Shown: positions 3,001 to 46,600, counted from the first letter of the stretch. The stretch: 64,000 nt of DNA from Paraspadella gotoi (GCA_051294375.1 CM119265.1:13012124-13076123); one strand, 5' to 3'. Program-made: numbers and translations. Notes: a model not told the origin generated them from the sequence alone.

Positions 3001-6000
3001 AGCTCAATCACACACTTAGCTATCCACAAACAAAAATTTATTCAAATCCATCCATCCAATCACGAGTAATTGGTGTTTTTTGCTAAGGTGGGACGGACGG
3101 ACGACGGACGGAGGACGGACAGACGGACGGACGGACGGACGGACATCATTTTTTTTGCATAATTTATCATAATTCGATGTTCTGACGTGATATAGGTTAT
3201 TGCCCGACAATATTGAGGGGGCGGACCGACGGACCGACAAAGTGAGTTATAGAGTCGGGATCTGCTGATAAGCAGATCCGATTAAAAATCGTTTGCTTGA
3301 GGGATAGTTTTTTCAAGCAATGACGAGTTTGTACCCACATGTTCGGGAGGCATTTTAAGTATGTTTTAAACCCATTTTAATAAATATTTGGGAATTTCTA
3401 AAATGTCAATGATTTTTCTATCAAATGGTATAATATGATTAATTTTTACTTTGTGTCATTCGATTTGCCTCACGGAGTTTATTTTGAAAATAATTTTTTT
3501 CTGGTGATAGTGTCCCGACTACAGGCCGAGGTATTTAACGTTAATTATGGAAAGTTAAGTTGGTGAAATATTTAATGCACTAAAAAATATTATAAAAGAT
3601 TAGTACACAATGTTTTATTTAATATTATATGTCAGTGTTCCTAATTACCCCCGTTCCGAATTACCCCGTGTCGTTTTTAACAGCTCGGTTCCTTTCGTTT
3701 TATCACTTTATCACCTCGTTTTTACCTTTTGTTCGATACAGATCTGAGCGATTTTTGGATGAAGGGAATATGGCAAAAGAGATATGACGAGATCATGCTC
3801 GGCAACAAGCTTGTTGAGATGATCCACCTTCTCATCGTTCACGTTTAGTAAAATTGGATCCGTGTTTTTAAAACGAGAGGCGATGTCGTCGGCCTTAGAT
3901 ATAAGCCATTCCTTTAATTATTTAAATCCAAGTTAAATAATTTCTACGCTCATTTACTAACCTCTTTCCTAATATGACTAGCAATCGTAACATTTATTGT
4001 CGAATCCCTAGTAAGGTATTCGACAACAGGAGGCGAAACGTATCCCGCGCCGAGCACGAGAACCTTCTTCATCTTGGAAGCAACCTGTTGCATTTGAATA
4101 CAAAATTAGATTTTGTCTTCACCTTGTCTTCACTATTTATGAAATTATGTAGTACTGAAAAAAAAATGCACAACGATAATTATGAATTTGTAAGAGTTTT
4201 TTATTTTGCCACTTGACAGATTTTCGAGAATATAATATGAAAACAATATTTAAACGAACAGAGCATAGAACATATATAACAAAGAACATATATTTTAGGA
4301 AGGATGCCTTTAAACATGCGTGACATATTATCATGTAGGATAATTGTCCAAATTCTTCCATCACGAGTCAAAATTCTTAGTTGACAGAACAAGATCGCCC
4401 CCCCCTACTACTAGAGGGTTTCAAGACTCCCATCTTCTTTGAATAATACTGTCAAAAAAATAATTAAATTAAATGAAATTAAATGAAACCAAAATAAAAA
4501 TTATCCATTCATTTAATAAATAAGCTCTCTTGCCCCTGACTTTGGACAGGCTTTGGTGGTTTAAGGCCTACATCACTTTCACAAGATAATGACATAGCAG
4601 GTCCCTGCAAGCTTTCAATCAAGACTAACACAGTCTCGTTTATTCTCTCCCAGAGTACCTGGCTTCCCTATCAATGAAGTGGTATAATGTTTCAAAGAAT
4701 TTTTCAATTGTATGAAAAGACAACTCCCTTAAGCATTAGATCAGGGAATATTAAATTGTACTCCGCCGAGCATCAAAATACAAGGAGCTAAATTTTATGA
4801 AATTGGTACAATCAATATAAAAATTATCCATTCATTTAAATTTTAATAAATAAGCTATCTTGCCCCTGACTTTGGTGGTTTAAGGCCTCCATCACTCTTA
4901 CAAGATAATGACATAGCAGGTCCCTGCAAGCTTTCAATAAAGACTCACAGTGAGCCAATGAAGGCATGTTCAGAATGCTAATAAGTAACTGATAAATCAT
5001 TTTCCAAACTACACGAGACACACACATCCATGTACTCACCAGCGCAGCTTTATCTTTACTCCTTGACTTGGCACGTCTCAGATCGCCTATGTATCGAAAG
5101 CTTGGTGCCAACTCCCCGTTGGTGCAGATAACAGCGTTTCTGACAGTTTTAGGAAGAGCCGTTTCGGCCTCTGACCACGATGCATCTGCCTGAGACTTAA
5201 ATTTTGAAAGTTCAAAATTAAAATTCTGATGAATGCGAATTCTTTTCTTTGCTTTTAGTCTCACCTTGGCCATGTGGTATACGTAAGGCAAAAGGAGGTT
5301 TCCAAAGAAGTCAGTAGATTCTCTAGGAATTTGAGCGGGCATGTTATCAATAGAACACACCAAAATTCCAGGGCCTGTCGTAAGATCGGTACATCATATT
5401 ATTGGTTTATTATTGGATATTACTGCTATGGCAACGGGAAGACATGTGTGATGCCCGGGGTGAGAGGCATCTCGCTACAGCTGGCGCTCAGGGCTTTGGA
5501 CCTGTAGTGACCACCCCATGTCAGTGGCGTATTTATGCTAACACCATCACACACAACCAGTGTGACCGTACGAGGATTTAACCCGGAACTCAAGGTTGGT
5601 GATGGGGTACTTAGCTGTCCAAGCCAGTGGGACGAGCCAAGTTTCACCAAGCTATATTGGAGGCGAATTTAGGATTCGCCACTCAGCCTCCAGCGTAAAA
5701 CGCACCGACGAAAGAAACCGTGTTCTTGTGAAGATCGGCGTCGTAGAGGGCGAAAGGTTTATCAATAGTGGTGCACTCGTCACAGAATTCAATGGAACCT
5801 CCAGGGTCCGCGGTAATATCACATATCGCGACCATCCGGTGTGGCAAATGCGGACACCCAGTCGACGAAGGGATCCAGGGCGCGTCGTATGGACGAATCA
5901 GGTTTTTAGCATCCGGGATAGAAAGTAAACGAGGATGTCCTAAACAATAATACTAGTTTAAAACATAGATTTGATAAAGTAAAGGTTTCAGGGAAAAAAA

Positions 6001-10718: not shown

Positions 10719-11611
10719 ACTCTTGCAAGTTGCAAGACTTTCGACTTAAAAACAATTTTATCTTTGATCCATTCCCATCAATTTCCTCAATATTTTTTAA
10801 ACTTACATTTAGATTAATTTAACCCTTGCATTTTTTTCTGAAGGAAACAAAAAAGACAACAATATTATATATTTGCGAGAATGAAAGTTACAATTGTATT
10901 ATATTGCATTCAATATTGACATTACTAACACCGGATTTTTCAGGCTCGAGCAGACGTCTAATGAAAAAATATAGAAATTAAAGCGAGGGCGAAAATACCG
11001 AACGACAGGAACGCACATTCTATTCACAATTGATATTTTTAACTTCATCCTGGGTCTGAAGCTTAACACCCTGTTAGGCTTTTGTTTTCATTTTCGAACC
11101 TTCCTCCTGATCGTCTCCGCGTGACTCGTAGCGCTGCTCTTCCCTCATCTGTAGGGGGCGACGTAGTGCCGCGACTGCAGCAGCAGCAGAGGTCAGTCCG
11201 CGGCGTCTCCAAGCGACAAAATGCCTTGACGATTTGACGCTCGATGACCATAGCATAGGACAATAAATGTAATTGTTGGATTTATTTTTACGACAATTCA
11301 AAATTAAAATAAACAGGACGAAAGAGATGAAAAAATTAGGGATGGCTGATAAATAATCAAATTAGACAAACAAAATCATGTGATGTGTCTGATTTACTAA
11401 TTAACTGTCGACCAAATACAAAATATAGCTTTTAACCTTTCATATGAAATTGTACGATCATCGTCAATGGAGGCGTCGTTGCAAGGAGCTCGTTATTTCT
11501 CCGACACAACACTTGGCCAAGCTTCTTTCGCCTTTTCTCTGGGAATGGGACCGTCTCCCTACGCGCAAGACTGCTTCCCAGTAAGTCTGTAATATTAGCA
11601 TACTTATCAAA

Positions 11612-13136
11612 GGTTTCGCATACAATCAGTGTCTTTTAAACAACGAAATCTGAACTTCAATAATTACCATATTTCTTGATCTCATTGGTTAGTACGAATC
11701 TTTTTTCATTTAAAAAAAAGGTAGTCTCAAGTTATCTCCTTATCACTTAGAACTTCCCATGTAAATTTCTATGAGTTAAAAATACGGTAAGAGATGATTT
11801 CTTCAATGCTTGTCAATCTAATCTCATTAACTTCTTAATTTTAGAAAAAAGTATGCTTGAATTTTTATAGTACAGATGATTTTTAAAGATCGAATTCCTT
11901 ATAAGAATCCTCATGTCTTTTACTTACATAAAAGATTTTAGGTAAGACGCCAAATTATCTGATACAATTTTTTTCCTTCATACGCTTTTCCTGATTATTT
12001 TTCTTCTCCTCTTTTCTTCTCTTACTTTATATTTTCCTCTTCCTCTTTCCTCCCTTACTTCTCACGCTGTCACTTACCATTTTTTTGGCCTCTACCTTTT
12101 TCTGTCACTCATGCACTTTCCTCACTTTGTTATCTTCATTCTTTCTCTTTTTTTCCCCTCTTTTCTTACCTTACAATTGTTTCACTATTTTTTCCCCATT
12201 TGCCTTCGTTTTTTTGCCTTTCACCCTCTCTTTCATTCTCTCCCCTTCTCCTTTTCTTGTTTTCCCTTTCCTATTTCCTCTCACTACGTTTACATTGAGC
12301 CAAATCAAAGAAAATATTTAAAATGCATTATAAGAAGAAAATGAACAGTAGCGCATGATTTTTCTTTCAATTTTGGTTGCCTAGCAAATTTAGTAAATCG
12401 ACAGATTTTGCGGAAAATATTTTCCGCAAAATCTGTTGATTCTGAGAAAAAACAAGTCCTGACGCTTTCCATTGGGTTAAAAGGATGCGGTTTTTTTTAA
12501 TTAATCAAGGTCAGTATGTACCTCATCTTTTAAAACTAATAAATGAGTTGAAAATATTCTCTTTATCAAAAATAAATGCAAGTCACAAAAAGTCACAAAT
12601 TAAAAGACGTCTTTAAAAATTATTTGTGGCTAAACCAAAAAAGTTTTTTTGATAATTTTATAGGTGTTAAAAGCTTATTCAATAGGCTATATTTTCTGTT
12701 AATTTCAACCAATTTGATTTATTTTTGTTTAACAAATTATGATAAAGACTGAAACTCCAACTTTTTGACTTGTTAACTTTAAAATTAATTCATAGGCAAA
12801 CTATAAATGATTTAAGCTAATAAATATACCCCGAGGTAAAGAAGATAAGAAAGAACGGATTTCCAAAGTAAAAAAATTTTATCAACTTTCCTTGTCATTC
12901 AAATCAGAAGTCGTAAGTAAAAATGGACAAAAATGGACATAATTTTTTTGGCTAAAAGTTGCTAAAATGGTACTATTTTATCATTAGAAACGGGTGGAGA
13001 TGTTTTTAACTAATCCTTCGTTCGGCCTAATTTGTGTTGTGGTACTGGTACAAAGTTAATCAACATTGTAAGTAACAACTGAACAAAAGTGGAAAGAGTC
13101 GTTTTTTTTCTAAATGCAACGTTTGTACGCGGAACC
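11612..13136. mobile_element. 1.5 kb non-autonomous TIR element with 4-bp TSD
   Basis: TIR GGTTTCGCATACAA / TTGTACGCGGAACC flanked by CAAA on both sides; inverted second copy at 22565-25073. Confidence 0.75.
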
Positions 13137-14090
13137 CAAAGTCATCGGTAATGAACGATACAGAATTATAGTAACTTTTAGTTTTATGTCGACAATATCA
13201 TGATATCAGATTAGAGTTTCGTTAACCGTTAATTTTTCAGGAAATTCGCTTAACCGTTAAAACTAACATTTTTAACGGTTAACAGTTAAAATCGGTTAAT
13301 TTTATAATTCAACTTTAAATTTAAAATACTAATATTTAAAACAAACACATTATAATTAGTAAAAGAAAAATTGGTTTGAGCAAACCATCTTGAAATTACC
13401 CATGATAATTGAGCTTATCAGCTAATCTTGCAATCAAAAAAGTCAAAGAAAGAAAAAGCACAATTTAAATTTTAATTCTAATTTTATATTAAGTTTTCTC
13501 GTTCTCTCTTTCTCTTTCTCTCTTTCGCTTTCTCTTTCTCTATTTCTCTTCCTCATTATTTTTCTAATTGTTAGTCTTTCATAAACCATGACCATAATTA
13601 AGGCATAATTATAAATAAAAAATATGAATATTAGTTTATTGATTGATTGAGTTATTGATCAAAAGATTTATTGATTAATAAATTTTTTTTTTCGTTTTAT
13701 TAAAAAATATATAATCATTGAAGGATATTTTTAGTTAGCCTTAATGTCTTTTTAAAGATTCCCTCCTTCTACTATTAATTCTAAATTTTTTTTATAATAA
13801 TTTTTTTATAAATTTTTTTCATTCATTCGTTTTTATTTCATTTGCTTCTTTGTTCGTTCTAAAGACGGAAAGAAAAAGAAGAATTATTTATTTTTTTAAC
13901 AACAAAATAGAATAAAAAGTTTTTCATGTAAGAATTTAATTTGTAATAAAATGACTTTGCATATATATTATATTTCAAAATATTCTTTGATGTAAATGCA
14001 TTGTGTTATGTAATCCTTTCTTTCATTGTGATTAGAGATTAGAGACAGAGTTTGAAATAATTGGCAACAACAATTTATTTTCAAGATGAA

Positions 14091-14132
14091 AACGTACATG
14101 TTTCGGCTTTTTTACAAACCTTCTTCAGCGTC
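14091..14132 (-). ncRNA. Minimal type I hammerhead ribozyme (Penelope-type)
   Basis: Minus strand GACG-CUGAAGA-A-GGUUU...AAGCC-GAAA-CAUGUA-CGUU: core boxes, stem I GACG/CGUU, palindromic ACAUGU stem III, GUA cleavage triplet. Confidence 0.7.
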
Positions 14133-14288
14133 AATTTAGTTTGTGAAATTATTAGAGAGATTTTGTGTAGAAGATGGGGAGAGAGAGAGAGAGAGAGAGA
14201 GAGGGAATCATAAAGAGGGCAAAGTTTCTCTCTCTCTCTTTCTCCTTCTTCTACACAAAATCTGTCTAATATTTTCACAAATTAAATT

Positions 14289-14330
14289 GACGCTAAAGAA
14301 GGCTTGTAAAAAAGCCGAAACATGTACGTT
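14289..14330 (+). ncRNA. Hammerhead motif with core mutation (CUAAAGA), probably inactive
   Basis: GACG-CUAAAGA-AGGCUU...AAGCC-GAAACAUGUA-CGUU; G5 replaced by A. Confidence 0.5.
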
Positions 14331-15135
14331 TTCATCTTGAAAAAAAAATCGTTATTGCCAATTATTTCAAACTTTGTCTCTAAGATGTAAATGCATAAAA
14401 TTAGTTGAAAGGAAAAAGTAAAAAAAATTGGGAGAAAGTAAAAAAAAATACTGGAAGGGCAGAAAAAAATGAGAGAAAAGAAAGGGGGGAAAAAAGGAGG
14501 TGAAAAGAGAGAAAGAAAAAGAAAGGAACAGAAGGGTATAAAGTTAGGGGAAAAAAAGAATAAGAGGGACTAGGATAGAAAAAAGATTGGGGTTAATAAT
14601 AAAAAAGGGGAAAAAAACATTGAAAAAATGGAAAAGAGATAGAGGGGTGAAAATATGGTGAGAAAGGGAGAGGAGAATAAGAGGACAGGAAAAAAATACT
14701 TTTCTATTAAAAAATTAAAGATTTCCTAACAAATAACAAAAATGGTATTTGAAAATTAACCGAATTTAACCGTTAAAATAAATATATTAACGGTTAAGTT
14801 AAAATTATAATTAACCGTTAATAACCGTGAACTTTTAACGGTTATCGGAACTCTATATCAGATATGATATAAAATGTGATCAAAAACGGAAAATATAAAA
14901 AGCTTCGCAATGCGTAGCTGTTCGATTCTTAGGATTCGTCTTCTTTCGCGAGAGTTTAAGAAATCCTTTTTACCCGATTAAATAGGAAATAGTATTAAGG
15001 AGGTCGGGTCGAGGGATTTGGGGAACTACTACTTACGTCAACATGAATTAGTTATTAATTCAACGTGGAACAAAGCAGGAAAAACGACAAGTAATAAAGA
15101 TAAGTAATTAGCTGAAATATTCTTTTGGTGACAAG

Positions 15136-22518: not shown

Positions 22519-22567
<49 letters not shown>

Positions 22568-25267: not shown

Positions 25268-28200
25268 ATGATAGGCATGTCTTTTATACACGTTCAGGTT
25301 CGAACCCTTCGACGAAATCCCATCCTTGGGGAGGGGCGATGGTTGGATGATTGGCGCAGACAAGCGAAGGAACAGACGAACCAACTGAGACGACCTGAAC
25401 CAAGGTCGCTTTCTGTCCTAAGAGCGGACAGGAATTTAACCCAAACGGAGGAAAGAACAGTCGAAGACCAGGCGAGTAATTTAATTATAAGGGATTAAAA
25501 AGTAAAATACTGAAGTGACAGTGATAATTGTTATGTGTTAATGACAGAACCGTTCAATATAAGCAGTCCCTGAGCTTCGGATCAGGCTGTAACACAATGT
25601 TACAGGGGGGGTTAAGCGCCCCGTCCCTCTTAATTGCTAAGCAGCCACCGGGCTAAAACCCCGGACTTTTGGGTAGGGAGGTGAATGACTTGCCTCCGGC
25701 ACCAATGGCCGCTGATGAACGGTTGGTGGATTTTAGTCCACCATAATACTAAACAATAAATATGCCAAGTTATTGTAATGACGAAATATCGGTATGTGTT
25801 GGATATGACTTCCTTCCATCAGCGCCGTGATAGCGCATTGGACTATCCCTTCATTTCCGAATTCAATGATCTCGGATGCTGGCCCTGGTCGGAACGGTCC
25901 TTGCAAAATAGTACCAGGCCAGTTAAAGCACTTGTAGCAAGCCTTCCAGAGTTTTAGAAAGCAAGGAAAATGACGGTAAAATCTACATCCACTGAGCAGT
26001 GAGGACACTATGTGTGTGCGCTCTCAACACAGTAAAAGGGGCATTACGACGCCCTCCTCTCGTTCACTTCATTATTTTAGAAAGCTCGCTCGTCATACTA
26101 GTTTGAAAACCTTTATTAAAATAATCTTTTGAAGAATGCATTCGTGTAAATAAGTAAAAAAAAACTCGCAGGTTGCGGATTTTTCCCAACCACCGGTTCT
26201 CGATGGTTTTTTTCTGCTGAAGTTGTGTTGCGTCGATGATCCGGCGGATCTTTGCATTGTGGACATTTCACACAAAGGTCTACATGAAGCAAACAAGGAG
26301 GATCTAGTTCTTTTCGTCAATGTGGCAATCATAAACGCGGGTAATTTTAATAAGTAAAAAAAGACGTTCTTGCTACGACATAGATAACGGACTCAGGGTA
26401 TCTGACTAACAGGTTGGCGGCTTCGGGCCTCATTGTCGCCTCTTAGCATAGGCTGGGTAAAGTAGTTCATAATATAATTATACTAGTACCGTCTTGCTCT
26501 ACCGCCGGGATTGAACCCGGAACCCACGGTCAGGATGGTGCGTTAGCCAGCTAAGCCACTGCAACGAGGTTGAATTTATATTATATTAATTTGTAATTTG
26601 TTTTTCTTTGGTGAGGCGGTTTCAAGTCTCCGCCACAATGTTTTAATTGAAATTACGTTTGAATTATCTTGAACCCAAAATGAAACCAACCAATTGAAAA
26701 GAATATGGTATTCTGTATTCTATATTTTTTGATCCTCAAATATTTTTTATGGTTCTGCCAGGTGAGAATCTCCTTCCCCTCGGGATTTTCGCAGGATTCC
26801 CTAACTTGCGCGAACTGGAGGCTCCTTTGAACGAAATTCGCGAGATTCGATTGGAAAACGATTCATTTCCGTTCCTCGAGACACTTGACTTATCGTTTAA
26901 TCGCGTGGACGCAGACCACATCCGAAACCTAGGCGAGATCGAGACGCTCAAGCGACTAAAACTTGGCTTCAACGGCCTCCTCGCTATTCCCGTCGAGACG
27001 ACACGGCCAGTCGCGCTTGAGAGCGACGATGACATCATGACTCGGACGAAGGAGCGATTCCCGAATCTTGAGGAGCTCGATCTGGACGGAAATCGCTTGG
27101 ACGATGGAGTGTTCGAGGTTCTTGGACGGATCAAGAAATTGCGAAAATTAAATCTTAGTCAAAACGAGATAACATCGGTACCCCATTTACGCGTGTCGAG
27201 AGGGAGTTGCGTCAGAATGACACCTGAAACCGCTGAAAAGAAGTTGAGCGAAGACGCGTCGCCGGAAGAGAGGTCAGTGTGTGTGTGGGAGTACCGAAAC
27301 GTTGCGAACTCATTGATAATCATTTTTACTATAATTACCAGCTCTCGTCACAGTTCGGCTAGCGGTATACAAGCGCTGCAGGGCAAATCATCTCGAACGA
27401 GATCATCAAAGTCGCGGGTTCGATCTTCCGGTCACCAATCGCCCACCCAAGACGAACCGGCTCATCCGGAAACGGCGACGATGGAGCCGGAAGCTCCACC
27501 ACCCACAGTCGCAGAACCCGCCTCGGTTAAGGGTAAATTATTCAATAATAGCCAATCATAGTTACCTTCAGGTTTGATGGCTTAATTTCTGAAAGATATA
27601 CGCTTTTAAGACGCGACCGAGTTGTCGGAAGCCGTTGCCGACGATCTACTCAACAATTCTTCTGTCGCGGCCGTCATAGTTGTTACCGATGTCGATCGGG
27701 TAGACGAAAAGACAGAACTCGACGAAGACATCTCGCATAATTTAAACGAATTGGAAATCAGCGAGGATGAAAATGGTTTTCATGTGAGTTTCACCTCTAT
27801 TGGAATTTTCCTCAAGTCTTCCATCACGTCACATATTATATATATTACCATATTTGGTGATGTTCCAATTTCTTACCTGTACGAAATCGGAAACGCCAAA
27901 TATGTCGAAAAATATGTTTTTGTTCGGATTCCGATGAGTTCGGGTATTGAATTAGAATAAAATCAAATCTGGGTTCGGCATGTGGCTGCAGGCAAAATCC
28001 ATATCATTTGTCTTTATTGATATGGTATCCGTACTTGATTGATCACATAAATGAAATGCACTGCATCGAACTTCTGTCTTTTCGTTTTATTCCTTTTAGT
28101 TTTAGGATTTCCTGAAGGTGGCGCTTGCAGTCACTTAGTTTGGAGGTTTTCTCCTGTCTTAACAAATGAGCAACCAAGTATAGGCAAATTATACGCAATA

Positions 28201-31007: not shown

Positions 31008-31138
31008 CGTTTCTATTTTGTTCAAATACGATTTAGCAGGACGAAGTCAGGGTTTTTCTTGAACGATAGGGTATTGAAGATCTCTAATATAAAAAATTAG
31101 ATAAACATGAAAAAAAACGATTTTTCAACCAGGGTATT

Positions 31139-32324: not shown

Positions 32325-35300
32325 TCAAACTTTTAGCTGTGTCGCGCTCTGCATCAGTGTTTTCAGTCCCGGCATGAAGGAGCTTATTTCCGCAAAGTTT
32401 CCTCCCCTCACGATCGCCGCGTAGACTTTCAGGCCCCTCTGATAATCTTTGGCGCTGATAGCAGCGGCCATTTGCTGCAGCCCGCCAAACACATTGGGGG
32501 ATACTGTTCCTTCGCGCAACTTGTCTGCAAGTATTTCTAGTTTCCTGCCAACATCGTCCAGTTTACGCTTCATAACTGGATTGGTGGATACGTTTTGGCA
32601 AAGCAGTAAAGCCCCAGAAAACGTGTCGTACAGCAGTTGATATTCCGGAGCGAGGGGATTCTTAACAACAAGAGCCGGTGATTGAGATGGAGCAGGAGCT
32701 TCCACTGGTGCGGATGCGAGGCCGTTCGACGACGGTGGAGTCCAAGCATTAGACGAAGGTGGAGTCAATACAGGTGCAGACGGAAAACCAGCCTGAAGTG
32801 GAAATGCTGGAGGGGTTGGGTGCTGCATGGCATAAGCCGCGGGGTTAAGAACCCCTGGTGGAAGCTCCATCGGTGTGACTGGTCCCGTTGGCTTATCTTT
32901 TGCTTTGCGAAATTGGGAATTAGGATTAGGATTCTGAGCCTGAGAAGTTGGAGGGTCGTTCCAACCAAGATTCGCTGGGGGGGCCTCTTGAAACGAAGGC
33001 ACGGCAGGTAAAGAACTGATCGCCGCATGTGTCTCCGTAGCAAATTGCGTAGTGGAATGAATCGTTGGCAGAGGAGGAGGCACGAACGAGTCAACCGGTT
33101 TCGCTGAAAAATTAGTTTCCAATGGTGTCGGTCCGGTAGCCGTGGAAGGAGAAAACATTCCCGTCTGATGGGTTATAGGAAACATCATGGGTACCGAAGG
33201 CATAGCATGATCGAGCGACGATGTCGTTAAGGATGTTTGGTTGGTATGGCTCACGGATGAGTATTGATATCCTAAACACAATGCGCATCATGAAACCAGG
33301 TAAACTTGTATTAAGGGGGCATAACCTTATAAACACCTTACCTCCACTGTTTCCCATAATTTCCGGGTGAGCTGGGTATTTAGGGCGCCCTTTTAATCCA
33401 GTGTGTTTGCTGGAAATTCCCTCTGTCTTGTTTTGCATTGGGACCGACGGTGGCTGTGGGAAAGTGCTAGTCGGTTGCATTATAGGTGCTGGATTAACAA
33501 AGGGTATCGGTTCTGGAGGTTGCCGAGTCTCTTGGCCGAGACTTCCACGCGAAGACCGCGACATTTGCCTCGATCGCGAGGAAATGGAGTGATGATGAGT
33601 GGCTTGATGGTAAGAGGGTTTTGATGGCGTCATTGAACTGGGACGACGATTCAATCGTAGCGCCACAATCACGCGCTCCTTCAGATTTCGCGCTTCTTTT
33701 CCGTCGCAGATATCCAGGCAGGACAGAGCCAACTGTAACTGACCTTGAGATATTAAGAGGTTAGCGTAACGAGTCAAAAGCGCCGACAAGCGTTCAGAAG
33801 AAATGTTGAGGTTTGCAAGCGCCTTGCTGAAAACTGTAATCTTTTCAACTTGAGAATGGAGTTCGAGGCATGTTTTGCTCTCGCAGAGCTTTTGAAGAAG
33901 CTCTATGACCTAAAAGAATTAATTTAGAATTAGCTGATAAATAATGAATAGAGAAAGATACAAATTGTTCGAAATTTCAGGAAAAATCTTGGATAAATTG
34001 CTTTAAAGAAAACGGCGAACCTTAGACTCGTTTCCTGCACAAATGTAGCACAGACAAGCACACGTAAAGAGAGCTCTGTCGTTCTCAAGCCGTGACGCGA
34101 GGATATTTCCCAGAGGAACCAATTTTTCTACGCCATTGGAAGAATTTGCTAAAATTCCGGCCAATGCCTGACGCCAGTTATCCAAGTTGCATGATGTAAT
34201 CAGTTTGTCCCAGTCTTGGTCGAGAACTATAGACATCACGCGCGCAATCTGCTTGTCCTAATAAGGGAAAACCATAAATAGAGCCAATAATAATAGAGCC
34301 AATCTAAGTTAATGGGTTGGGTCAGAAGTTTCTAAAATAGCTTTATGCACGAGTACTTGATTTTTAAATATTTATTTACAGATAGGAAATGTCAATCCAT
34401 TTTTTAACATTTTAATCAGATTTAGATAGTTCATAAAAAGTTGTCCGCAAAAATTCTTCATTAAATATTTTGATGATACGTGGGGCAAAATTACGTAAAA
34501 CATTAAAAAATTAAGACCATCATCATTTTATGGCAACAGGGAGACATGTATTGCCCGAGGTGTGAGGCATCTCCCGACTGCTGGCGCTCAGGCTTTGGAC
34601 CACCCCAGGTCACTGGCGTGTTTATGCCGAAATCACACTAACCAGCGTGACCTCACAGAACTCTCGGTTGGTGAACGTGTACTTAGCTGTCAAAGCCAAT
34701 GGGACGAGCTGAGTTTCACCAAGCTATACGGGAAGCGAATTTAGAATTCGCCACAATATATTAGTTTTTGCTAATTTTCAGTAATAAAAGATCAAAATTT
34801 TGAAAAGTTTTAATTATATTTGTTTTTTGTGCTTTATTTTGTTGTATGTTTTTGTTTTTTTTGTAAGCTTTGTCAGAATTTATCAAAAAAAAGATTCTAA
34901 CAAAAAATATTAAGAGTACAGTGATCTCGCCAGACGTTACTATCAAAGAAAATTAATAAAAAAGTTTAAAAAAAACAAAAACGAATGATTGATGCGATAA
35001 CAAATTATTAATATAATAATAATTACCCAGGGGTAAAACAGAACACTTGTTAATTTTTAAAAAAATGCGGCCCCAAGGAGACGAAAGTTAAAAACAAATA
35101 CATCAGCCAATAGCGGGGACACTTTCCTAGATATATCACCAGAAAATTTTTTTGAAAAACATTTATTATGTGAAAATTTTGTTCCGCACTATCCTAAATA
35201 ATAAATTGAAAGATGATAAAGAGACTAGTATGTGGATGCATACATTTAAAGAGATCTGTAATGTATATATCCTGATATGCTTGAAAAGATGGAAATTTGA

Positions 35301-38300
35301 TATAAAAATATATAAAAGATTCAAATTACCCCCAAAGGATTTGCATCTTATCATCAAAGCTCACTATAATATTTCTTTGCTTGCTCTCATAGATTTACTA
35401 GACTCATAACATAACTGATTATGTAAACAGATGCGTTTAAGATAAAAAAGTACAAAACTAATAGTCATGATATACAAATAAAAAGTATAATAAAATTCAG
35501 CCGCCAGCTATTTCATATCATTTATTATTTTTTATCATTAAAGTGAGAAATAACATTCATTAACATATGAAAAAACATCTTAATATCAATCAAAAAAATT
35601 ATGTACTGGACTCCAAACCCTGTCACCAAATTTGGTCAAGGCAAAATATACATTTTTAACTGCTAATTTTTTTTAATAAGATTATTTTGTTTTTTATTAA
35701 AATATTCTAGGGCTTAAACTAATTTAATGTCAATTTTAAGCAAAGTTTTATATTTTAAAAAAGATTTATAGTTCAAAAATTAATTCCATAATTAAAATAC
35801 AGAAGGCTTCATATTATAAAATGTGGTACCCCTTTTTTATGACCAGAATCTGTTCCCACCAAACTACCCGATCGAATTTAATGAATTTTTACATTTAGAG
35901 TGCTAATGACTATATAAATGGAATTATCGAAGCGAATTTTGATATTCAACCCCTGACAAGAGATACAGGGCCCTGGGGGTGAACCCCTGGGGGGCCAAAA
36001 AATGCTAAAACTTTTTTTTTCATTTTTCAAATTTTTTTAGTAGCATCAGGTGCATTGACGTTTTAAACATAAGAAAAAAACCTTTTAGAACAAAAATTGA
36101 TAAATTTGCAATAGCATGGTTGAAGATGCATGGTTCATCGTTTTACTTCCAATTTTCGCAAATTATTCCAAATCTGACTAACTGCTGATGTTCATGAAGC
36201 TAAAAATTAAGGTAAATGAATATTTTTGAGGTAATAAATACATTTTTGTGGAAGAGTAAACGTCTGTACAACTGTTCAAAACAAAAATAATAAAAAATCA
36301 GCGGTCAAATATTGAAATTCGCCTCGATAGTTTTATTAGTATTCACATAGGGATCGTTCATTCCAAATTTCAATAAATTTGGTCCAGTAGTTTTCTCGGA
36401 ACGAGTTCTGGTCCTTTATATTTAATTTATTATCAATTTGTTTGAATTTATTTAAAATAATGTTTCTCTTCTTAATTTTAACAAATTGAATCATAAATTT
36501 ATCAGTTATATTTGTCTTTTAAAGCTACTTTTGTTAATTAAAAATTGCCTACTTTTATTCAGTTAACTACTGAGTAAACCAAAAAATTGTCTATTGCCTA
36601 CTAAAAAAAAAAATCTTTATCCAAGTTCACAGTATATTAAATACAGTATACTATTTAAAAATTAGGTAAGAAAAATAACCTGCTTTCGTTTTTTAAGTTT
36701 TTCTAAGTATCTTTGGCGGGTTCTCAGAAGCAATGCTTGATTTCCTGATGATGCCAGAACTAGAGCATCGGCTAGTCGGTCGTCCGCGAAGCAAATGTCG
36801 ACAGCAGTTTCCAAATCACCCACTAAAACAGCCTGCACCAACAATCCTTCTACGGAATCTAAGTCCGAAGGAATGCTAATTTCCGCAGGTTCCAGGTCTT
36901 CTTTGTCTAAGAAAATAGGAATAATACCAATTAAAGCTTCCTGAGACCCTCACCAAACACCTAATGATACCGTTATCAACACGAAGATCGACGTGCAAGC
37001 CTTCCTTAACGTCATCGATTCTGGAATCAGCGTCGAAAGCATGGGTGATGTTATCAAACGCCGATGTGGCAGGGTTTCGTGACGAGGATGTTAAAAGGTT
37101 ATCAAAATCCGACGTTACTTCGTCATCGGCTACGAAAAGCGCCGAAGCAGGTTTTTTAGAAGCGCCCTCAGGTGAACCATTTTCGTCAGAAAACTAACGG
37201 TAATTAATAAAAATTATATGCAAATTGTACTACTTACCAACTATTGTAGTAAAAATAAGAATAATTGATTATTATTAAAATTTTACAAGACATTTATTAT
37301 TTAAGCTAGAATCCTAATGTAATGAAACCTGATCTCTATCTTCAATCGAAGGCTTGTCATCATGAACCACAGTAGCGCCGTTGTCACTTCCACTGGCGCT
37401 GTTGGCCTCATTCTCGCTCTGTGGAGCACTCGGTTTTCCGGACGAGACAAAATCGAATGAACTTGTGCTGCCGTCTTCGCCCTAATGAAAAAAGTATTTA
37501 TATTTATGGATATACTATTATAAATTATACGTAAACTTCTTATGCGGTGCACTCAGGAGCGGGATAAATTTATAAAGCGGAAAAATTGAACACAGCAAGT
37601 AAAAAGTGACACACAGAAAAATAAGAGTAGGCCTATAGTAACTTAATAGCACTACCCGTTGGATACGACTTCCTTCCATCAGCACCGTACTAGCGCAGTG
37701 GGCTAACGCTCCATCACTAAACCTATTCGGAACGGTCCTTGCAAAAGAGTGAGGAACCGGTCAAAGCATCGGTAGCAAGCCTACCGCCGGATCCGAAGTT
37801 CCGGAAATCTCTCAGACCGAATGGGTACAATAAAGATGGGGCATCCACACCAACAGAGTGGCACGGCGACCCTCTCCTCTCGGTCACTTCAGGCTGTATC
37901 ATTTTTAGAAAATTCTTAAGGACCATACAGGGTTGGGACCTTATATCGAGACAAACCTCAAGGTCCTGCCCTGTCTGGACGATTTAAGATACAATAATAA
38001 AATGAGTTGAAAATGTTTTATCTGGCTCTGTACTTTTAAAATACATTTTTAAGCAACTACAAGCCGTTGTGGATGTTTTCAAAATAGTCGTTTTTATGCG
38101 CGCATTGTATTGCACATGTTAAAAGCCAAAATTATTAAAAATGTTTTCGGTAAGCATTTCATCACTATCCAAAATAAACATATTTAATCTTTTTCAGGTA
38201 AGATAAAATTTTAGGAAGACTAACAAATATGCTTAAATTGTTAAATACTTAATATATTTTTTACCTTTTTAATGCTTTTATTATGCATTCAGAAATCTTA

Positions 38301-41300
38301 CATGATTAACCTAATTATCTGACAATATCGTTAATAAATTTGTTGATAAAAGTTTTAATAAAAATTAAACCATAACAGTAAATTACACAAATCTTACCTG
38401 CTTACTTCAAAATTTTTTAAACCAAAATACAATGTAAACATTGCCAGAAGCATTATTATAAGTATTTATAATATTTATATTTATAATTATTATTTAAGTA
38501 TTTCCAAAAATATTTTTAACTGTTATGTCTTAGAATGAGACTAAAAAATAAGTTTTCAAACATTTTTCTTCCACACCGCGCGGAGAAAACCGAGCAGTTG
38601 CCTTTGCTGCATCAAAAAAAAAGTATTATATTAATAAAATAGAATTCGTAAGATCTTTGGCTGGCATCGATGGGAAAGCATCAGAAACCTTAGAGAAGGT
38701 TTTGGTTACCCTGACATTTATAATATTTTCAAAATTAGTCATGAACGATTCATGAAACGTTTAACTTTGACGAAAAATAAAGTTTTGTCTGATTTCTATG
38801 AAAATATAGAAATAATCTCGTAGCTTAGTTTTCCTTCACGTTAACGTCTTAATTCTGTTTTTTATTTGTTGCTGATGTATGCTACTGTATCATTATTGAT
38901 ATGAAATAAAATTCTCATTAAAGAATTTCAAAAATATTAATACATCGTCTAAAAGCGAAGAGAGTATTATACAAATATTTCAGATTTTAAAAATCATTAG
39001 GGGTTTTAGAATAATGATTTTTAAAATTTTGTCTCGATGTATGGTCCCAACCCTGTATTATTATATCCATCAGTCAAACCAGAGCTTCTGAGGTGACTGC
39101 ATAGAAGTGTTCTCATTTTCATGCTTAAAAATATTTAATTGGTATGTTTTTCTAAATCTATTGAATGTGGTACACACTATATAAATGTCTGTTATTTCCA
39201 AAATCGAAGAACTGGCAGGGAAGGCGTTAATTATAGTTAGCAACTTGTAATTAAAAATTTGGTTACAACTTGAACGCAGAAAAAGAAAATATGGATTAAA
39301 GCCCTCAGAATGCACGGTTATTACAGAGAACATGAATTTCGACTCTCCAACACGCCGTCTGAAATTTTTCTCAATCCATTAAGTTAACACGAGGAAAAAT
39401 GCTCAAGAGGTTAAAACTTCATTCTCATATAAACAATCTATGCCATAGACTATGGCAAAGATTTCAACAGAAGGGGTGGGGTTAATGGGTTTTTTAAAAT
39501 TATTTCAAACGAAACTTGTATTAAAAGAATGATATCTTTTACTTTTTACAAAAAAGTTTTGACCAGAATACCGAAAAGTTAAAAAATAACTACTTCCTCA
39601 TGTGGCGACGCTTAATTTTAAAATGAATAACTGGGAAATATTTCTATTTTTGATAATAAATTAATTCTTAGCTTAACCATGAAATAAACTAAAAAAATTT
39701 CAGACCTCAATCCTTTGTCATATTCTTGTTTGCTCCTAGTAATTATTAAAGCAAGTTTCTTAGCGACGATTACAAAAAATATTTTCAATAAGAATATTTT
39801 AAATATTAAATATTTCAAATTAAAAGGACAGCAGTATTTTTTCTAGGATTGAGGACAGCGTTTTTGTCATGGAGGATCAGGAAAGATAATTACAGGTCGC
39901 TACTAATTAGCGTATCCGCATGCTAAAATCTGACCGAGTATAAAACTGCAAACTTTCTCAATGAAACCAACCTTCGTTTGTTGTTGGTGTTGCAATTCTA
40001 GGTTTGGTTCGTATCCTAAATGTCCCTGCATTATTATCTCAACCTCCTGGTCAGAGTCATAAAATCCGGGAGGCTTGCAAGATTTATCTACGGGTGCAGA
40101 TTTGACCTGGACATGCGAGTGAGATTGATCTAAAATTGACTCTCCTAAAAATCTTTTCCGCATACATGGTGACAATTTTATAAGCGCCGATAAAAAAAGC
40201 TGTCATTTTCAAACCCATGAAGATTTTTTCAATGTTAACTATGAATTTAAAAGTAAAAACTCATCGTGAATTTCCTTTCGTTTCGTTATTTTGAATTAAT
40301 AGAAGACGTTATTGTAGCAAGAAGTACATGTTTCGACTTTAGACATACAAGCCTTCATCAGCGTCAAAATTGTTTGTGAATTTTTTGAAAAAATTTTGTG
40401 CAAAGGGGGGAGAGAGAGAAATAGAGAGAGGTCAAAGTTTCTAACGAAACAGGCGGAGACCTTTGCGCAGGCAATGGGCAAACGATGCCTATCTTTCAAC
40501 TGCAGCAACTCATTTCCTCTCTGTGGAGTGAGCGCCCACCAAAAAGGCGACTGCAGGAGGAAGGGAAGGAGTCCACACTCCACAACTCATGTCGCAAAAG
40601 TGTCAAAAATTGACAACCACCCATCTCGCCAGCAGGTGAGAAGAGGGCAGTCAACAGGCGTACCAGGCCAGAGACATTAGGGTAGCCTTTGGACTCTTTC
40701 TGCAAGGAAGCCTCCCTAGTCCAACACATACAGGCTCAACCAACATGACCTCTCATTTGAAATGAACTACAAATTATTCTGCTACAGATTTGAAAATCGT
40801 CTCTGATTTTTAAACTCACTTTTTTTAAGATTTGTTCTTTCAGTAAGTTTTCTGAAAAAATTTGAAATAAAATAAATTAATATTATTATCTTCTGAAATC
40901 CCTTTCATATCTAAAGAGAATGATGTACTTACGAATACTGAAATATAAAATTTAACCGGTCCAGCTTTAATTTAATTAGGATACTCAAAAACGAGACATC
41001 TTTTCAAAAATAAATAGTTAAAGGGCAAATTTAAGATTTTTATCAAATTGTGATATTGTGGCGGTATATACGGAATATACCGCCACAATATACTATATTT
41101 GACTCTTAATTGAACCAAGGCTGGGCAACTTAATTTTTATGTTAGAGCTTTCGTAAGTATATCATTCTCTTCATATTTTTAAGGGCTTTCTGAGGATATT
41201 AATATTGTTAATATCTTAATAAAATGAATACTTAAATAGTGATAAAAGTTAAAAAGAAATCTTAAAAGCATAAGGATCGTCGCAATTGCAATATATACAT

Positions 41301-43632
41301 GGTGACAATTTTACAAGCGCCGGTAGAAATACGCTGTCATTTGCAAACCAGTGGTTATTTCATTGATTTTCAAATTTAGTTGAGTAGAAAATATTCAAAC
41401 TATTTATGTGTTAAATTTTATATTGATCAGTTAAGATATGCCTTGACAATGAGTGGAGAAAGTTGGCTTGTAAAATCGGGTTTCATTTTCCAACTCACTT
41501 TTTTTAGATTCAATTTTTTTTTCTTACTTTCATTAACAAAGTTTGATTTTATTTTGCAACGAATTTTATTTGCAAGAGCAGACATGTTTCGGCTCACAAT
41601 ACGAGCCTTCATCAGCGCATATGAGTTGTGAACTTGATACAAGTTTTAGTTAAAGAAAAGAGAGAGAGAGAGAGAGAGAGGGAGAGGAGAGAGTTAAAGG
41701 TTTCCAACAAAGAATTGAGTAAGGACAGTGATCAGTGGTGAGGACAGATTTTTAAAGTGGCTAGTTTGAATAAGTTTTGAAAAGAAGTGAAAATTGGTGA
41801 GAGAGACAGAGAGAGAGAGAGAGAAAAATAAATAAATAATTACATTTGAGCAATATACAACATAGATAAAGATAATGACTGTTTAATACAAATTGAAAAT
41901 TAAAAATTGAAAAGTTGAAAATTGAAATTGAGAAGTTGAAAATTGAGATTTTAGAGGGATAGATAAGTAAAGATTGTGGTGAAATATAAGAATTAAGAAA
42001 GAGCTTACTTTCAGAAAGTTTTCTGAAGAAATTTGAAATAAAATAATATTAATTTTATTATCTTCTGAAAGCCCTTTCAAATCTAAAAAGAATGACGTAC
42101 TTACAAATACTGTAGTATAAAATTTAACTGGCCCAGCTCTAATTTAATTAGGATACTCAAAAAACGAGACATTATGGCAACAGCCGGGTTGCCTGTGATG
42201 CCCATTGGGATGGGGCATCTCACTGTTGGCTTTGGGGGCTTCCGACCCTCAGTGACGCCTCCAGTCACTGGCGCGGTTACCCTAGGACGGTCTCGCTTTG
42301 CCAACGCAGAGGGAAGTCGTTAGGACTGTGGATGGAACACTACGCCTGGGATGGTGTGTTCCCCCTCTGAGCCAATGGATTTGGCTGAAGGATGGTGGAC
42401 GTGAGGCGGTGTGAATATACCGCCACAGGATCCCGGGCCAAAACATCACGCAGGTTCCTCAAGCTGAGAGGTGTCTGACAAGACTGTTACCATAGTGGGA
42501 GAGGAGAGAGAGAGCGCGAGTTGTGGGGGCATAGGCGTTTGTCATAGCGTACCCCAGGGGCATAGGGTTTGTCGTAGCGTACCCGAAGTTGGCAGGGCAT
42601 AGGCGTTTGTCGGTAGCGTACCCTTGAGAAAGTTGCGTGTTCGATAGTAGGGCTCACCACTTATGGCAACAGCGGTCTCGCTTTGCCAACGCAGAGGGAA
42701 GTCGTTAGGACTGTGGATGGAACACTACGCCTGGAATGGTGTGTTCCCCCTCTGAGCCAATGGGTTTGGCTGAAGGATGGTGGACGTGAGGCGGTGTGAA
42801 TATACCGCCACACCATCTTTTTTAAAAATCAATAGCTGGAGAGTAAATTTATATTTATCAAATTGTGATTGGCTATCTTAAATCCTTCTTTCTCAGGCTC
42901 TTTCATGATACTTATATAAATAATAATATTTTATGTTTTAATAATTTAAACAGGTCATATATTTTGAAAAAAGATTTAAAATTTTAAATAATTTACTTTT
43001 GACACTCTTAATTGAACCAAGGCTGGGCAGCTCACTTTTTGTGTTAAAGCTTTCGTAAATATTCATTCTCTTCATATTTTTAAGGGCTTTCAAAGGATAT
43101 TAATATTGTTAATATTTTAATAAATACTTTATTTAAAAAAGAGCTAAAAGTTAAAACAAAAATTGAATTTAAAAACAGAGTTAGAAAATGAAACCCGATT
43201 TTACAAGCCAACTTTCTCCACTCATTGTCAAGGCATATCTTAACTGATCAATATAAAATTTTAACACATAATTTTAACACATCGACACACAGGAGTCAGA
43301 TCAATTCTACTGAAACTAAAGAAAGCTAGGTCTATTTATATCTGGAGAAGAGGATCAGAGGCATGGGCTATTTTTACAATTTCATGGTTTCTGCAAGCTG
43401 ATTGGTCGAGGCCGATTCCGTCTCGACCAATCATGATTCGGCGATTCCATATCGGCGGAGATTTCCCGATCCTCCGATCCGTTTCTACTTTGAGTAGGAT
43501 TTGTTATCCTGCGATGATAGTTTTAGTATTTTCTACTCAACTAATTTTTAAAATCAAAGAAATAACCACTGGTTTGAAAATGACAGCATATTTCTACCGG
43601 CGCTTGTAAAATTGTCACCATGTATATATAAT

Positions 43633-43664
<32 letters not shown>

Positions 43665-46600
43665 AATAAAAACCCGATGTTGCGATAGCAAAATCATAAC
43701 ATGCACGAATGCGATGCCTAATTTTACGAGTTCAATCCTAATTACATTTTTTTTAAATAAAAACGCAGAAAGAGAAAGAGCAAAATTGTTTTCGGACGAA
43801 TCAGCAGAAGCAGCAGGAAAAACTTTTTCATTGTCAAATAAACTGATCAGCAGACGCAGCCCCTGAGAAAAAAGAAGAAAAAAAAAAAGAGAGAGAGAGA
43901 GAGAGAAGCCAAATCGTTTTCGGACGAATCAGCAGCGGCAGCAGCAGAGGCAGCCAGAAAAAAAGAAAAATCAAAAGGCAGCAGCAGAAGCAGCAGGAGA
44001 AAAGAGAAAAAGCCCCTGCAGACTCGTTTTTTTTTCCCAGTGGGGAAAAGAGAGAGAGAGCTACATATAATTAAAAGAGAAAAGAAAGAGAGAAGGAGAC
44101 ATAAAAAATTTGTTTTTATAAAACGTAAACAAAACATAATTAATAACTGTCCTTACCCAATTTCAAGGACCTCGATGATGAGAAGCTGTATATAAATTTT
44201 CAGCTTATTACACCCAAATTTAATCATAAAAAAGGCGATCTATAATTTGGAACGACGACAACAACAACGACGACGACGCCACTTATGTGCAAAACCACAG
44301 CAAAAACTGAGTTGGAAAATGAAAGCCAATTTTAAAAGCCAACTTTCTCTCCTCATTGACAAAGCATATCTTAACTGATCAATATAAAATTTGAACACAA
44401 ATGATTTTAATATTTTCTACTCAACTAATTTTTAAAATCAATGAAATAGTTTGCAAATGACAGCGTTCTTTTACCGGCGCTTGTAAAATTGTATATATAT
44501 GTATATTGGCACTCCACCCTTCGTAAAATTAAAAATATTGCTCAACTATTTGATATTCATTTCGATTAAAATACACAAATTGTCCTTTTTCGTTACCAAA
44601 TCCTCAAAGGTGTTTTTTGGCTCAGTCTCTGCTATGAATTGGTTTGAATTTTCCCGCTGATCAAGCTCGATCTTCTCCACCCGTAATATAGAAGGTTCAG
44701 GGCATAACGAATCATTTGATTTCTCCCCGACTCTCTCGAGATCCGGAAATACGTTGGGCTTTTAAAACCGTTCGGAGATCGACAAAAAACCGATTGTTGG
44801 TTGGGGGAAAATTGAAATCGATTAGTACGTACGCCATGAGCCAATATAATTCCAAATCAGAAGCAAGAAGAGTTCGTTGATTTATCGAGTATTTTGATAG
44901 CTAGCTTATAATACAAAAAAGTAATTACAATGGGACGACTTTCAAACGATAGCTTATTGCAAATAAGAACTTATAGATCATTGCAGAGAGTAATTATTAA
45001 ACTTCAAATTACAAACGTTAAATTTTTTTTTCACCTTTTTATGATCATTCTATTTAATCGGAATCAAGTGGAACTAGTTAATGGCTACCCTTCTAGCCGT
45101 TTTATTTTTATTCTTATCTTACTTTTTATCTTATCAAAAAGAGTAATTACATCACTGCTTCCAAATTGATAATTCCTTTGTAACCAAATTTGCACCAATT
45201 GCTCCTTCAATGAACTTTATTTGACTTAAATGAGAATTAAAGCTTAAAAGATTTTTATCCGCCAATCTACATTGTAATCTGTATTGGAGTACTTTTTTTC
45301 ATAGGTCTGTAGATTATAATTTTGTTTTACAAATTAACCAAAAAGCATCGAAAGAAGCCTTAAATCTTTTTCTTCCACGCTCACCTCTGCGGCAGCGGGC
45401 GAAGCGGTAGATCCATCAACGACACGAGGATCCGCACGTCTTGCTTCTAAAGTACGTTTGACATCAATCGCCCGGGCAGCAAGAGCGCCGTCCCCGTAGC
45501 CCAACAGTTTAAGCCACTCGCCACGAGGGTCTTGGGCGAAGTGTGCGCCAACGAATCGCCAAAACTCGCGGTCAAAATCGACGGTTTCGGAGGCTGCTTT
45601 AGTGGCGCAAAAGTCTCGCAAGGAACCGGCTTGAACTACGTTCCTAAATTGAATCGCGCGGTCGACCAGCTCCTCTTCTGTGATCACCTAAAAAAAATAT
45701 TACATTAGAATAGTACACATTATGTCTTGAATAAAATGGAAATTCGGAATTCTATATAGTATTAAGCATCTAAGAAAAACCAACCTGCGATATAACGACT
45801 TTTGATTCTTCCGCGAAGGAAACGAGCTTCCCGCCAAAGGCAAATGAGACACCCTGTGGACATCGAAGCCACTTGGGCGGCTTCTTTAAAGGCGGCACTA
45901 CCACTTTCTTTGGTGTCAATTGAGGAACTGGTGTAGAAACAGAGCCGAACGCTTCCGAGATGTCTACTTGTGGCTTGTCGGACAATTCATGAGTGCCACC
46001 CATTAACGAATACAAGCTAAGAAATAGAATTATAGCTTAGGTGCGTGGTAATCGAGAATCATTTTTTTAGTACTTATTTTTTACTATAAGACTGACTATA
46101 TAGTATATACCATATAGAATTTATGCCCCAATCTCATTTTTATCATACTGTGGCGGTATATATTCACACCGCCTCACCTTCGAGTTTATTCAGCCAATTC
46201 CAATGGCTCAAAGGGGAAACGCACTATCCCAACCGTGCGTTCTAACCACAGTCCTAACGACTTCCCGTGTTGTCAAAGCGAGACCGTCTTAGGGTAACCG
46301 CGCCAGTGGCAGAAGGCCAACTGAGATGCCAGATCCCAATAGGCATCACAGGCAACTCGGCTCTTGCTATAATACCCAGTTTTTCACCCACTACTAAACT
46401 AACCTTATGTGTCCGTCGAAGGCGCAGCTGGAAATTATTGCAGGATTTCGAGGGCACCACTGGACGTCAAAAGACCATTGCGATGACAGGGGCATCTCAT
46501 AGAGGACTTCGCCCCCCTGGACATTCGCATTAGGATCCCAGCAAAGTATGCGGTTATCTTTGCCACAGGAAAGAAGTAAGTCCGGGTCAAGAGGACACCA

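Follow-up and report, generated by a model that had tools for sequence, protein, structure and literature searches.

The DNA analysed here (the window) is a 64,000-nt stretch of the Paraspadella gotoi genome (GCA_051294375.1 CM119265.1:13012124-13076123), and all coordinates given are window positions. In silico analysis established that it carries intron-rich housekeeping genes, namely Sec31, a leucine-rich-repeat gene, DDA1, RRP8 and a major facilitator superfamily (MFS) transporter, amid dense repeats, and every named best match of the Sec31 fragment is an animal sequence with 52-65% identity. Within host introns of the window lies a family of short repeats (copies A1 to A6), comprising one element with two long terminal repeats (LTRs) and four solo LTRs, in which a tRNA-like unit and a putative type-P5 twister ribozyme can be discerned; this family is the subject of the present report.

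An earlier note on this DNA had listed five copies, and their coordinates, their TATRGCAA and CGCCAC(A/T) ends and their 4-bp flanks were all borne out. The copies A1 (5427..5683, minus strand, 257 bp), A2 (34529..34755, minus strand, 227 bp) and A5 (46149..46371, plus strand, 223 bp) are solo LTRs, while A3 (42173..42427, minus strand, 255 bp, of the high-copy subfamily) and A4 (42662..42812, minus strand), which had been counted as independent copies, are the 3′ and 5′ LTRs of one 640-bp element (42173..42812, minus strand), A4 having 2 mismatches to A3 in 140 shared nt together with a 104-nt deletion at a CGG microhomology. What had been taken for a lone end at 26611-26637 is the terminus of a sixth, diverged full-length solo LTR, A6 (26368..26637, minus strand; far end at 26368 tentative, flanks ACGT/ATGT), which was recovered by nhmmer profiles built without it (E 5e-10 and 6e-8). 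Two subfamilies were distinguished over aligned columns, A1/A2 with 85% and A3/A5 with 86% identity, A4 grouping with the latter, and identity between them falls to 64-68%, a level at which blastn returned no match and nhmmer an E of 1e-6. A 4-bp target duplication is seen at all four listed insertions, being perfect at A5 (ATAC/ATAC) and agreeing at three of four bases for CTGC/CAGC (A1), ATTT/ATAT and ACAT/CCAT (the two-LTR element), a degree of agreement which 7.3% of random position pairs also reach. The two-LTR element is nested in another repeat within a Sec31 intron, and its duplication could be fixed at 4 bp because ACAT, the target, is present just once at an empty paralogous site of that repeat, near 40996; in addition, some contigs of the sequencing runs skip the insertion. 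The sense strand has sharp ends, TGTGGCG…GCCATA, and is the opposite of the one read in the earlier note; it was assigned as the TG-start strand because the primer site, box A/B and the ribozyme pattern all lie there, while counts of G-U versus A-C wobbles made by eye left the strand undecided.

The two-LTR element, of 640 bp as it stands and approximately 744 bp with two full LTRs, has the size and the two direct LTRs of a terminal-repeat retrotransposon in miniature (TRIM, <1 kb), and no open reading frame (ORF) of 120 aa was found within 42173-42812. Its internal region (42428..42661, minus strand, 234 bp) is non-coding, contains three short tandem units, ends in GGCCCGGGATCC and folds no better than shuffled sequence (z +0.6/+1.6). 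A primer-binding site, TGGTGAGCCCTAC (42647..42659, minus strand), has its TGG 2 nt past the 5′ LTR and is, by eye and in this one copy, identical at 11 of 13 positions to the tRNA-Trp primer site of Gypsy-32_NVi (Fig. S2, PMC10886601). Within the internal region, an inverted near-copy of the LTR 3′ end and primer-site start (42484..42498, minus strand) would form a duplex of -15.8 kcal/mol on the TG-start strand as compared to -11.2 kcal/mol on the other, and is unused in the circular minimum free energy (MFE) fold.

Contigs from sequencing runs indicate how common these LTRs are. Loose contig ends at exactly 42427 were observed for 124, 116 and 114 contigs in three DNA runs, beyond which the contigs enter unrelated AT-rich flanks starting with ATAT. 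In run X1 8,082 contigs map to a 276-bp stretch over the LTR, and summed contig depth on the LTR, which is not a copy number, exceeds that on unique sequence approximately 10^4-fold and that on the internal region approximately 9-fold, indicating that the family is very abundant and dominated by solo LTRs. No high-depth joint corresponding to the 104-nt deletion of A4 was present among 15 joints listed. Run X9 contains spliced Sec31 contigs, and the X9/X1 depth ratio was 0.065 for the LTR, 0.16 for the internal region and 0.05-0.08 for other repeats and unique introns, contig depth being uninformative on RNA level, strand or ends. Such abundance of LTRs over internal regions could also be expected if an autonomous Gypsy family, with the tRNA-like unit and the twister in its LTRs, had left these copies as ordinary solo LTRs, the 640-bp element being a deletion derivative, as LTRs on other internal regions could then exist, and the 4-bp duplication and the Gypsy-like primer site fit such an origin. 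We consider this very improbable, as the sole abundant LTR-internal junction among those listed, present in 19 contigs of X1, leads to the short internal region, which is itself high-copy by contig depth, and none of the 17 long window ORFs matched a retroelement Pfam family. The family thus almost certainly represents the LTRs of a non-coding TRIM in an animal. DIRS/Ngaro and Helitron-type elements were rejected on the fixed 4-bp duplications and the direct repeats, features by which both groups are excluded. At 41057..41087 (neither strand) two TG-type LTR ends form a palindrome of 31 bp, with perfect arms and a perfect ATAT duplication, which suggests that fold-backs of the LTR terminal hairpin can be inserted by the integrase.

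The core of the LTR carries the pattern of a type-P5 twister, on the strand that had not been folded when the earlier note reported no recognisable twister core. Complete patterns are present in A1 (5480..5561, minus strand, predicted cut 5535/5534) and A3 (42225..42305, minus strand, predicted cut 42279/42278), both with the permuted type-P5 stem order P1/P2/P4 and a minimal P1. The stems pair at 4/4 (P2), 2/2 (T1), 2/2 (P1), 4/4 (P4) and 5/6 (P5) positions in A1, and at 3/4, 2/2, 2/2, 3/4 and 6/6 in A3, respectively. T1 is Watson-Crick paired in three forms across the diverged copies, UG/CA in A1, CC/GG in A3 and CG/CG in A6, and T2 is GC/GC in A1 and A3, so that both twister pseudoknots are matched. 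The catalytic motifs GA..G, UAA and UC..AAGC are found in A1 and A3, the base before P4 being A in A1 where G is normal. A decayed twister in A6 (26416..26506, minus strand) retains L1′, P1, UAA, L4 and P5, with an insertion in P2 and a broken P4. UAA is kept in all five copies that hold the region, and the L1′-P1-UAA motif occurs four times on both strands of the 64 kb, in each case in a family copy on the TG-start strand. Two independent narrow Rfam scans returned twister-clan models at the same strand and place.

A descriptor of the type-P5 pattern, which leaves T1 complementarity outside its sequence pattern, matched three sequences in the window, of which those in A1 and A3 satisfy all four tests of the stems and the third does not. 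The tests were passed by none of 100,000 shuffled copies (58 sequence matches) and by none of the chance matches in public metagenome and viral collections, 36 of which could be parsed (36 metagenome stretches and 1 viral, one stretch at a contig edge, L017, being left out), nulls that are optimistic given that the descriptor was composed after the copies had been viewed. An exact 23-nt motif was not found in metagenome contigs, and a search with the family profile gave a single weak match (E 0.06). Present-day copies vary least within the twister: among contigs aligning at 80% or more, to which this comparison is limited, variants of at least 5% were absent from the 74 twister framework positions, as against 13 in the 181 LTR positions outside it (Fisher p 0.010). 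In an alignment of four copies, 6 of 26 pairs are changed on both sides and 76.8% of pairing cells are paired, as compared to 29-47% with slid partners. Taken together, these data indicate that the LTR core is very probably a twister-derived fold.

The conservation of structure between copies had been proposed in the earlier note, and the stems named there, with their paired and partly compensatory changes, were confirmed; GATGCC/GGCATC, said to be kept around different loops, is intact in three of the four listed copies holding it and broken in A2. That the copies consist almost wholly of consecutive stems was not upheld, MFE-paired bases amounting to 52-66% as compared to 57-64% in three exon controls. 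Stronger folding than dinucleotide-shuffled sequence (100 shuffles) was evident for A3 (z -2.7/-3.2) and A4 (-4.1/-4.5), and weaker for A5 (-1.9/-2.2), A2 (-1.6/-1.7) and A1 (-1.5/-0.9), exon controls ranging from -0.4 to +1.0. As stated there, no hammerhead pattern is present in the family, none of 12 hammerhead-core pattern matches in the window falling in a copy, and an HDV-like (hepatitis delta virus) core was rejected by eye and by Rfam. The interpretation offered at that time stands, and is strengthened, as regards the LTR hallmarks of Gypsy type, an RNA fold under selection and the likeness to retrozymes; its whole-element fold of unknown type does not, as the conserved fold is that of a known class, the type-P5 twister, beside a tRNA-like unit. 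For the idea of a single-stranded DNA no support was found, and folding of the whole element exceeds that of shuffles only modestly. A new mobile structured RNA or single-stranded DNA of unknown fold lacking a known ribozyme, or alternatively a non-LTR Penelope-derived repeat, could draw on the terminal hairpin and GATGCC/GGCATC, which lie outside the twister and also covary, on the closure of that hairpin on the LTR end, and on the 31-bp two-end palindrome with its own duplication. Such an origin is extremely improbable, as the conserved core parses wholly as a twister and fixed ends, 4-bp duplications and a primer site are present; animal non-LTR retrozymes are described as having no LTRs or primer sites and longer target duplications (PMC7229834).

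Adjacent to the twister lies the tRNA-like unit. A box A/B pattern at tRNA spacing was matched only twice on both window strands, in A6 (26507..26558, minus strand; box A TGGCTTAGCTGG, perfect 9/9 box B GGTTCAATCCC) and in A1 (5574..5626, minus strand; box A TGGCTTGGACAG, box B with one mismatch), and a corresponding unit is present in A3 (42329..42374, minus strand; box A TGGCTCAGAGG, box B decayed to 6/9). Box A is kept in all six copies (TRGCY 6/6), and box B, which is also reduced to 6/9 in A4 and A5, is deleted in A2. The Helenus motifs described by Kojima, TRGCY, YGG and GGTTC (PMC10886601), are all present in A6. ARAGORN called no tRNA and Rfam found none in the family, a mascRNA-like T-arm match (E 9.5) being the only result for A6 alone. 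From these sequences we infer that the unit may represent an ancestral RNA polymerase III (Pol III) promoter, partly decayed in the abundant A3 subfamily.

The minimal P1 has a further property. The 8 nt preceding UAA are self-complementary in four of five copies (A1, A3, A5 and A6, the exception being A2), the P1 segment being calculated at +2.9 to +4.7 kcal/mol as a hairpin and at -5.6 to -11.0 kcal/mol as a two-copy duplex. Self-complementary tetraloops number 36 of 256, and as the copies share ancestry the self-complementarity is suggestive only. Hammerheads of Penelope-like elements possess a palindromic short stem and cleave as dimers (PMC6765202), and by the same token the 8-nt palindrome indicates that cleavage may need two LTRs; such dimer gating of the twister is regarded as less likely than not.

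On these grounds we propose, as a moderately probable interpretation of the sequence, that the LTR combines a tRNA-like unit with a twister, and that the protein-less TRIM probably spreads as an LTR retrozyme by means of a circularised unit RNA. RNA would be made on the TG-start strand, either from the tRNA-like Pol III promoter or by read-through from a host gene, and the twister would cut after LTR base 149 in both LTRs, releasing approximately 489 nt composed of the 3′ part of one LTR, the internal region and the 5′ part of the other, with 5′-OH and cyclic-phosphate ends and without a terminal repeat. The palindromic P1 segments of the two LTRs may pair, so that two-LTR transcripts would be cut better than intronic solo LTRs. 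A host RtcB-type ligase would then close the circle, the tRNA-Trp-like primer with the reverse transcriptase and integrase of some Gypsy element would copy it past the junction, and insertion would follow with a 4-bp duplication, mostly at ATAT-like sites. There are precedents for several steps: RtcB ligates animal retrozyme RNA in vitro (PMC7229834), and for plant retrozymes both host-enzyme ligation of a circular template and its copying by Gypsy proteins have been put forward, the removal of the R repeat by cuts in both LTRs being the published argument for circles (PMC4918200).

The same active twister could operate in a Helenus-type TRIM with a linear cycle, in which trimming of the 5′ leader or incomplete cutting leaves the terminal repeat in place and reverse transcription proceeds as usual; a cut in the 5′ LTR only would retain LTR bases 150-255 as the R repeat. 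Both LTRs bear the same motif by construction, however, and no obvious Pol III stop precedes the second twister: the TG-start strand has a single T4 run, at which most copies differ (42442: 22,633/22,888 depth in X1), and the second twister would thus be the obvious 3′ end of the transcript. The linear cycle is accordingly considered unlikely, and our assessment, argued by analogy with the plant systems, leans slightly towards a circle-based cycle.

Several observations weigh against the proposed twister-bearing retrozyme, in addition to the post-hoc descriptor and the limited scope of the variant comparison noted above. Rfam scores are far below gathering throughout, the narrow scan of A1 giving Twister-P5 at 14.7 bits (E 0.94, gathering 37.6) and that of A3 a partial twister-P1 at 15.2 bits (E 3.7, gathering 67.2), and across the whole window there was no match at gathering and none of the 24 matches at E up to 10 fell in the family. 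The covariation alignment contains only four sequences and misplaces the deletions in both A2 and A5 as well as P3 in A3, and in its shuffle test the observed values of five measures were reached by 4, 9, 26, 80 and 327 of 500 shuffles, the count of doubly changed pairs being matched by 80 and the covariation score by 9. The nested twister scaffold lies approximately 15 kcal/mol above the MFE in A1 and A3, an uncalibrated gap, and P2 and P1 have pairing probabilities near zero in the nested folds of both; a P2 probability below 0.1 was also obtained for 18 of 50 canonical phage twisters (distinct sequences left from 133 loci once duplicates and loci that did not parse had been removed). Adjoining the catalytic loop, the A3 type has A-C at a position that is paired in all 50 phage controls. 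The advantage of the predicted circle over shuffles in folding is only slight (z -1.6), the LTRs terminate in TA rather than CA, and no polypurine tract precedes the 3′ LTR; some Helenus internal regions also end in weak tracts (PMC10886601 supplement), for which reason the missing tract lowers, without excluding, TRIM membership. Finally, the twister is complete in just two of six copies and broken in four, A2 having deletions in L1′ and P3′/P4 as well as in the box B region, A5 having lost P4/L4, and A4, the 5′ LTR of the sole two-LTR copy, having lost most of the ribozyme through its 104-nt deletion.

This decay, together with the A-C mismatches fixed in the abundant A3 type and the competing alternative folds, is what might be seen if the twister were a captured and dispensable passenger, for example from a Penelope-like element, with the TRIM moving without it. 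The pseudoknot and stems are still paired across subfamilies of only about 64-70% identity, however, and among present copies variation is lowest in the twister framework, while the genomic copies of any retroelement decay post insertion; a passenger is therefore considered quite improbable. With regard to a functional twister, the deviations of A3 are the short P1, one A-C in P2 and one at the outer end of P4. In mass testing, flaws in P1, P2 and most of P4 were tolerated and pseudoknots and catalytic bases were sensitive (PMC11662667), and P1 is reported to be dispensable (PMC5408937). The A3 flaws are thus of the kinds tolerated in natural twisters, the pseudoknots, general base, general acid and next A being intact by sequence, and active self-cleavage in the A3 type would seem likely.

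The host setting of the individual copies is as follows. The 331-nt intron which contains A1 (5375-5705, minus strand) belongs to a host enzyme gene on the same strand as A1, which has a Pfam AlaDh_PNT_C match below cut-off and which we take to be AASS-like. This intron holds a complete twister pattern in sense orientation, would measure 70 nt without the insertion and is flanked by intact exons. A5 and A6 are antisense to their host genes, lying in introns of Sec31 and of the leucine-rich-repeat gene, respectively, and A2 is in a Sec31 intron. The exons flanking the A1, A5 and A6 introns translate cleanly, and A2 and A3-A4 sit between Sec31 exons. 

Other features of the window were also recorded. 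Hammerhead-core patterns (CTGA.GA…GAAA) occur in a large host repeat family at 41615(-), 40361(-), 24075(-), 14128(-) and 22150(+). In the first of these stem II measures, by eye, 5 bp and stem III is short and palindromic, as in the dimeric hammerheads of Penelope-type elements. A second family (~25795-26075 and 37660-37890, both plus strand) is marked by a box A of tRNA-like type and by a structured core common to its copies, which might contain another pseudoknotted ribozyme, no fitting model being returned for it by Rfam. At 25684-25770 (plus strand) there is a weak match, with a CTGATGA within, to RAGATH-13, an Rfam ribozyme-associated motif (21 bits, E 0.21, gathering 80). A large fold-back family comprises long inverted repeat pairs of 88-94% identity (11600-13150 / 22560-23900; 19150-20750; 14074-14347), and a 22-nt AT-rich minisatellite at 47540-49200 lies in a near-perfect duplication of ~910 bp, which is either recent or an assembly artefact. 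A stop-free frame of 340 codons with a Thr-rich start (15502-16524, plus strand) had no Pfam match.

If the proposed interpretation is correct, the retrozyme strategy would be extended to animals and to a second ribozyme class, and would be joined to the Helenus/TRIMp3 group, LTR retrozymes being thus far placed mainly in plants and associated with hammerheads only, and few eukaryotic twisters having an assigned job. It would also bear on whether replication via a circle is open to an LTR element that has neither an R repeat nor a clear purine tract. The thousands of genomic copies would provide a natural alignment of great depth for a twister with a minimal P1, and where copies lie sense in short introns one may ask how the host tolerates self-cutting RNA in its pre-mRNA.

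Each part of the element has a known counterpart. The ribozyme pattern of A1 and A3 agrees with the type-P5 twister (RF02684; PMC5408937) in its order P5′-P2′-L1′-P1-UAA-P2-T2-P3-P4-L4-P4′-P5, in the catalytic G and A and in both pseudoknots. It differs from this class in a P1 of 2 bp with a self-complementary YUAG loop, where four P5-type phage controls have a long hairpin, in a T1 that departs from the consensus CC/GG orientation and in its sub-gathering Rfam scores. The 5′-end twister variants of Schistosoma Perere-3 (PMC8501958) likewise represent a weak-P1 twister serving an animal retroelement; Perere-3, however, is non-LTR and autonomous and has a single, 5′-terminal ribozyme of type P1, whereas the LTR element described here is non-coding and would be enclosed by two copies of type P5. 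Animal non-LTR retrozymes (PMC7229834; bioRxiv 10.64898/2026.07.22.740005) are also small, non-coding, ribozyme-bearing retroelements and yield circular RNA that is ligatable by RtcB in vitro, but unlike the present family they are Penelope-derived tandem repeats with type I hammerheads, lacking LTRs and primer sites.

The LTR itself is closest to Helenus/TRIMp3 (Kojima 2024, PMC10886601), a TRIM of <1 kb with a sense-strand tRNA-like box A/B in the LTR, a 4-bp duplication in animals and a tRNA 3′-end primer site, that of Trp in wasp Helenus. Three of four tests would place the element among TRIMs, and by its sequence it appears Helenus-like. The family deviates from Helenus in having no purine tract, in the decayed box B of its abundant subfamily, in its TG…TA ends and in its ribozyme, none being reported in Helenus LTRs in the available text of that paper, where the word twister has no mention; Pol III transcription is stated there to be unvalidated for Helenus itself. 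In the supplement, the wasp sequences Helenus-2_SyJa-LTR and Helenus-2_SyUm-LTR show by eye a hammerhead-like core 3′ of the tRNA-like part, unmentioned in the accessible text, for which a pairing of 12 bp with the loop of stem II seems possible, SyJa being listed with a tRNA-Trp primer site. A wider and rather unlikely view would be that animals own a class of LTR retrozymes composed of miniature LTR elements of Pol III type, in which the ribozyme following the tRNA-like promoter can be exchanged, a class represented here by a dimer-gated twister whose paired P1 would allow only two-LTR transcripts to be cut, side by side, with the ends passed to the ligase and intronic solo LTRs silent, and by the hammerhead-like core of the two wasp LTRs as a second, unrecognised member.

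With plant LTR retrozymes (Cervera et al. 2016, PMC4918200; PMC7761336) the family shares the non-coding organisation with two LTRs each bearing a small, here predicted, self-cleaving ribozyme, the 4-bp duplication, the primer site, the many solo LTRs and a presumed Gypsy helper (PMC4918200). It is distinguished from them by its animal host, by a type-P5 twister pattern instead of a type III hammerhead, by a tRNA-Trp-like rather than tRNA-Met primer site, by the absence of a purine tract, by a shorter LTR (~255 as compared to 300-400 bp) and unit (~490 as compared to ~700 nt), by the tRNA-like unit within the LTR and by a circle that is predicted only. The element resembles a plant LTR retrozyme in its proposed working, yet it is not a member of that group, having no hammerhead, Met primer site or purine tract. 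LTR retrozymes are placed mainly in plants and animal retrozymes are described as non-LTR (PMC7761336; bioRxiv 10.64898/2026.07.22.740005; PMC7229834), and neither a twister-bearing LTR element nor an animal LTR retrozyme was found in literature searches (titles and selected passages) outside subscription journals, Repbase and Dfam. Each part is known and the combination appears undescribed, and the family may best be read as an animal, twister-based counterpart of the plant LTR retrozymes.

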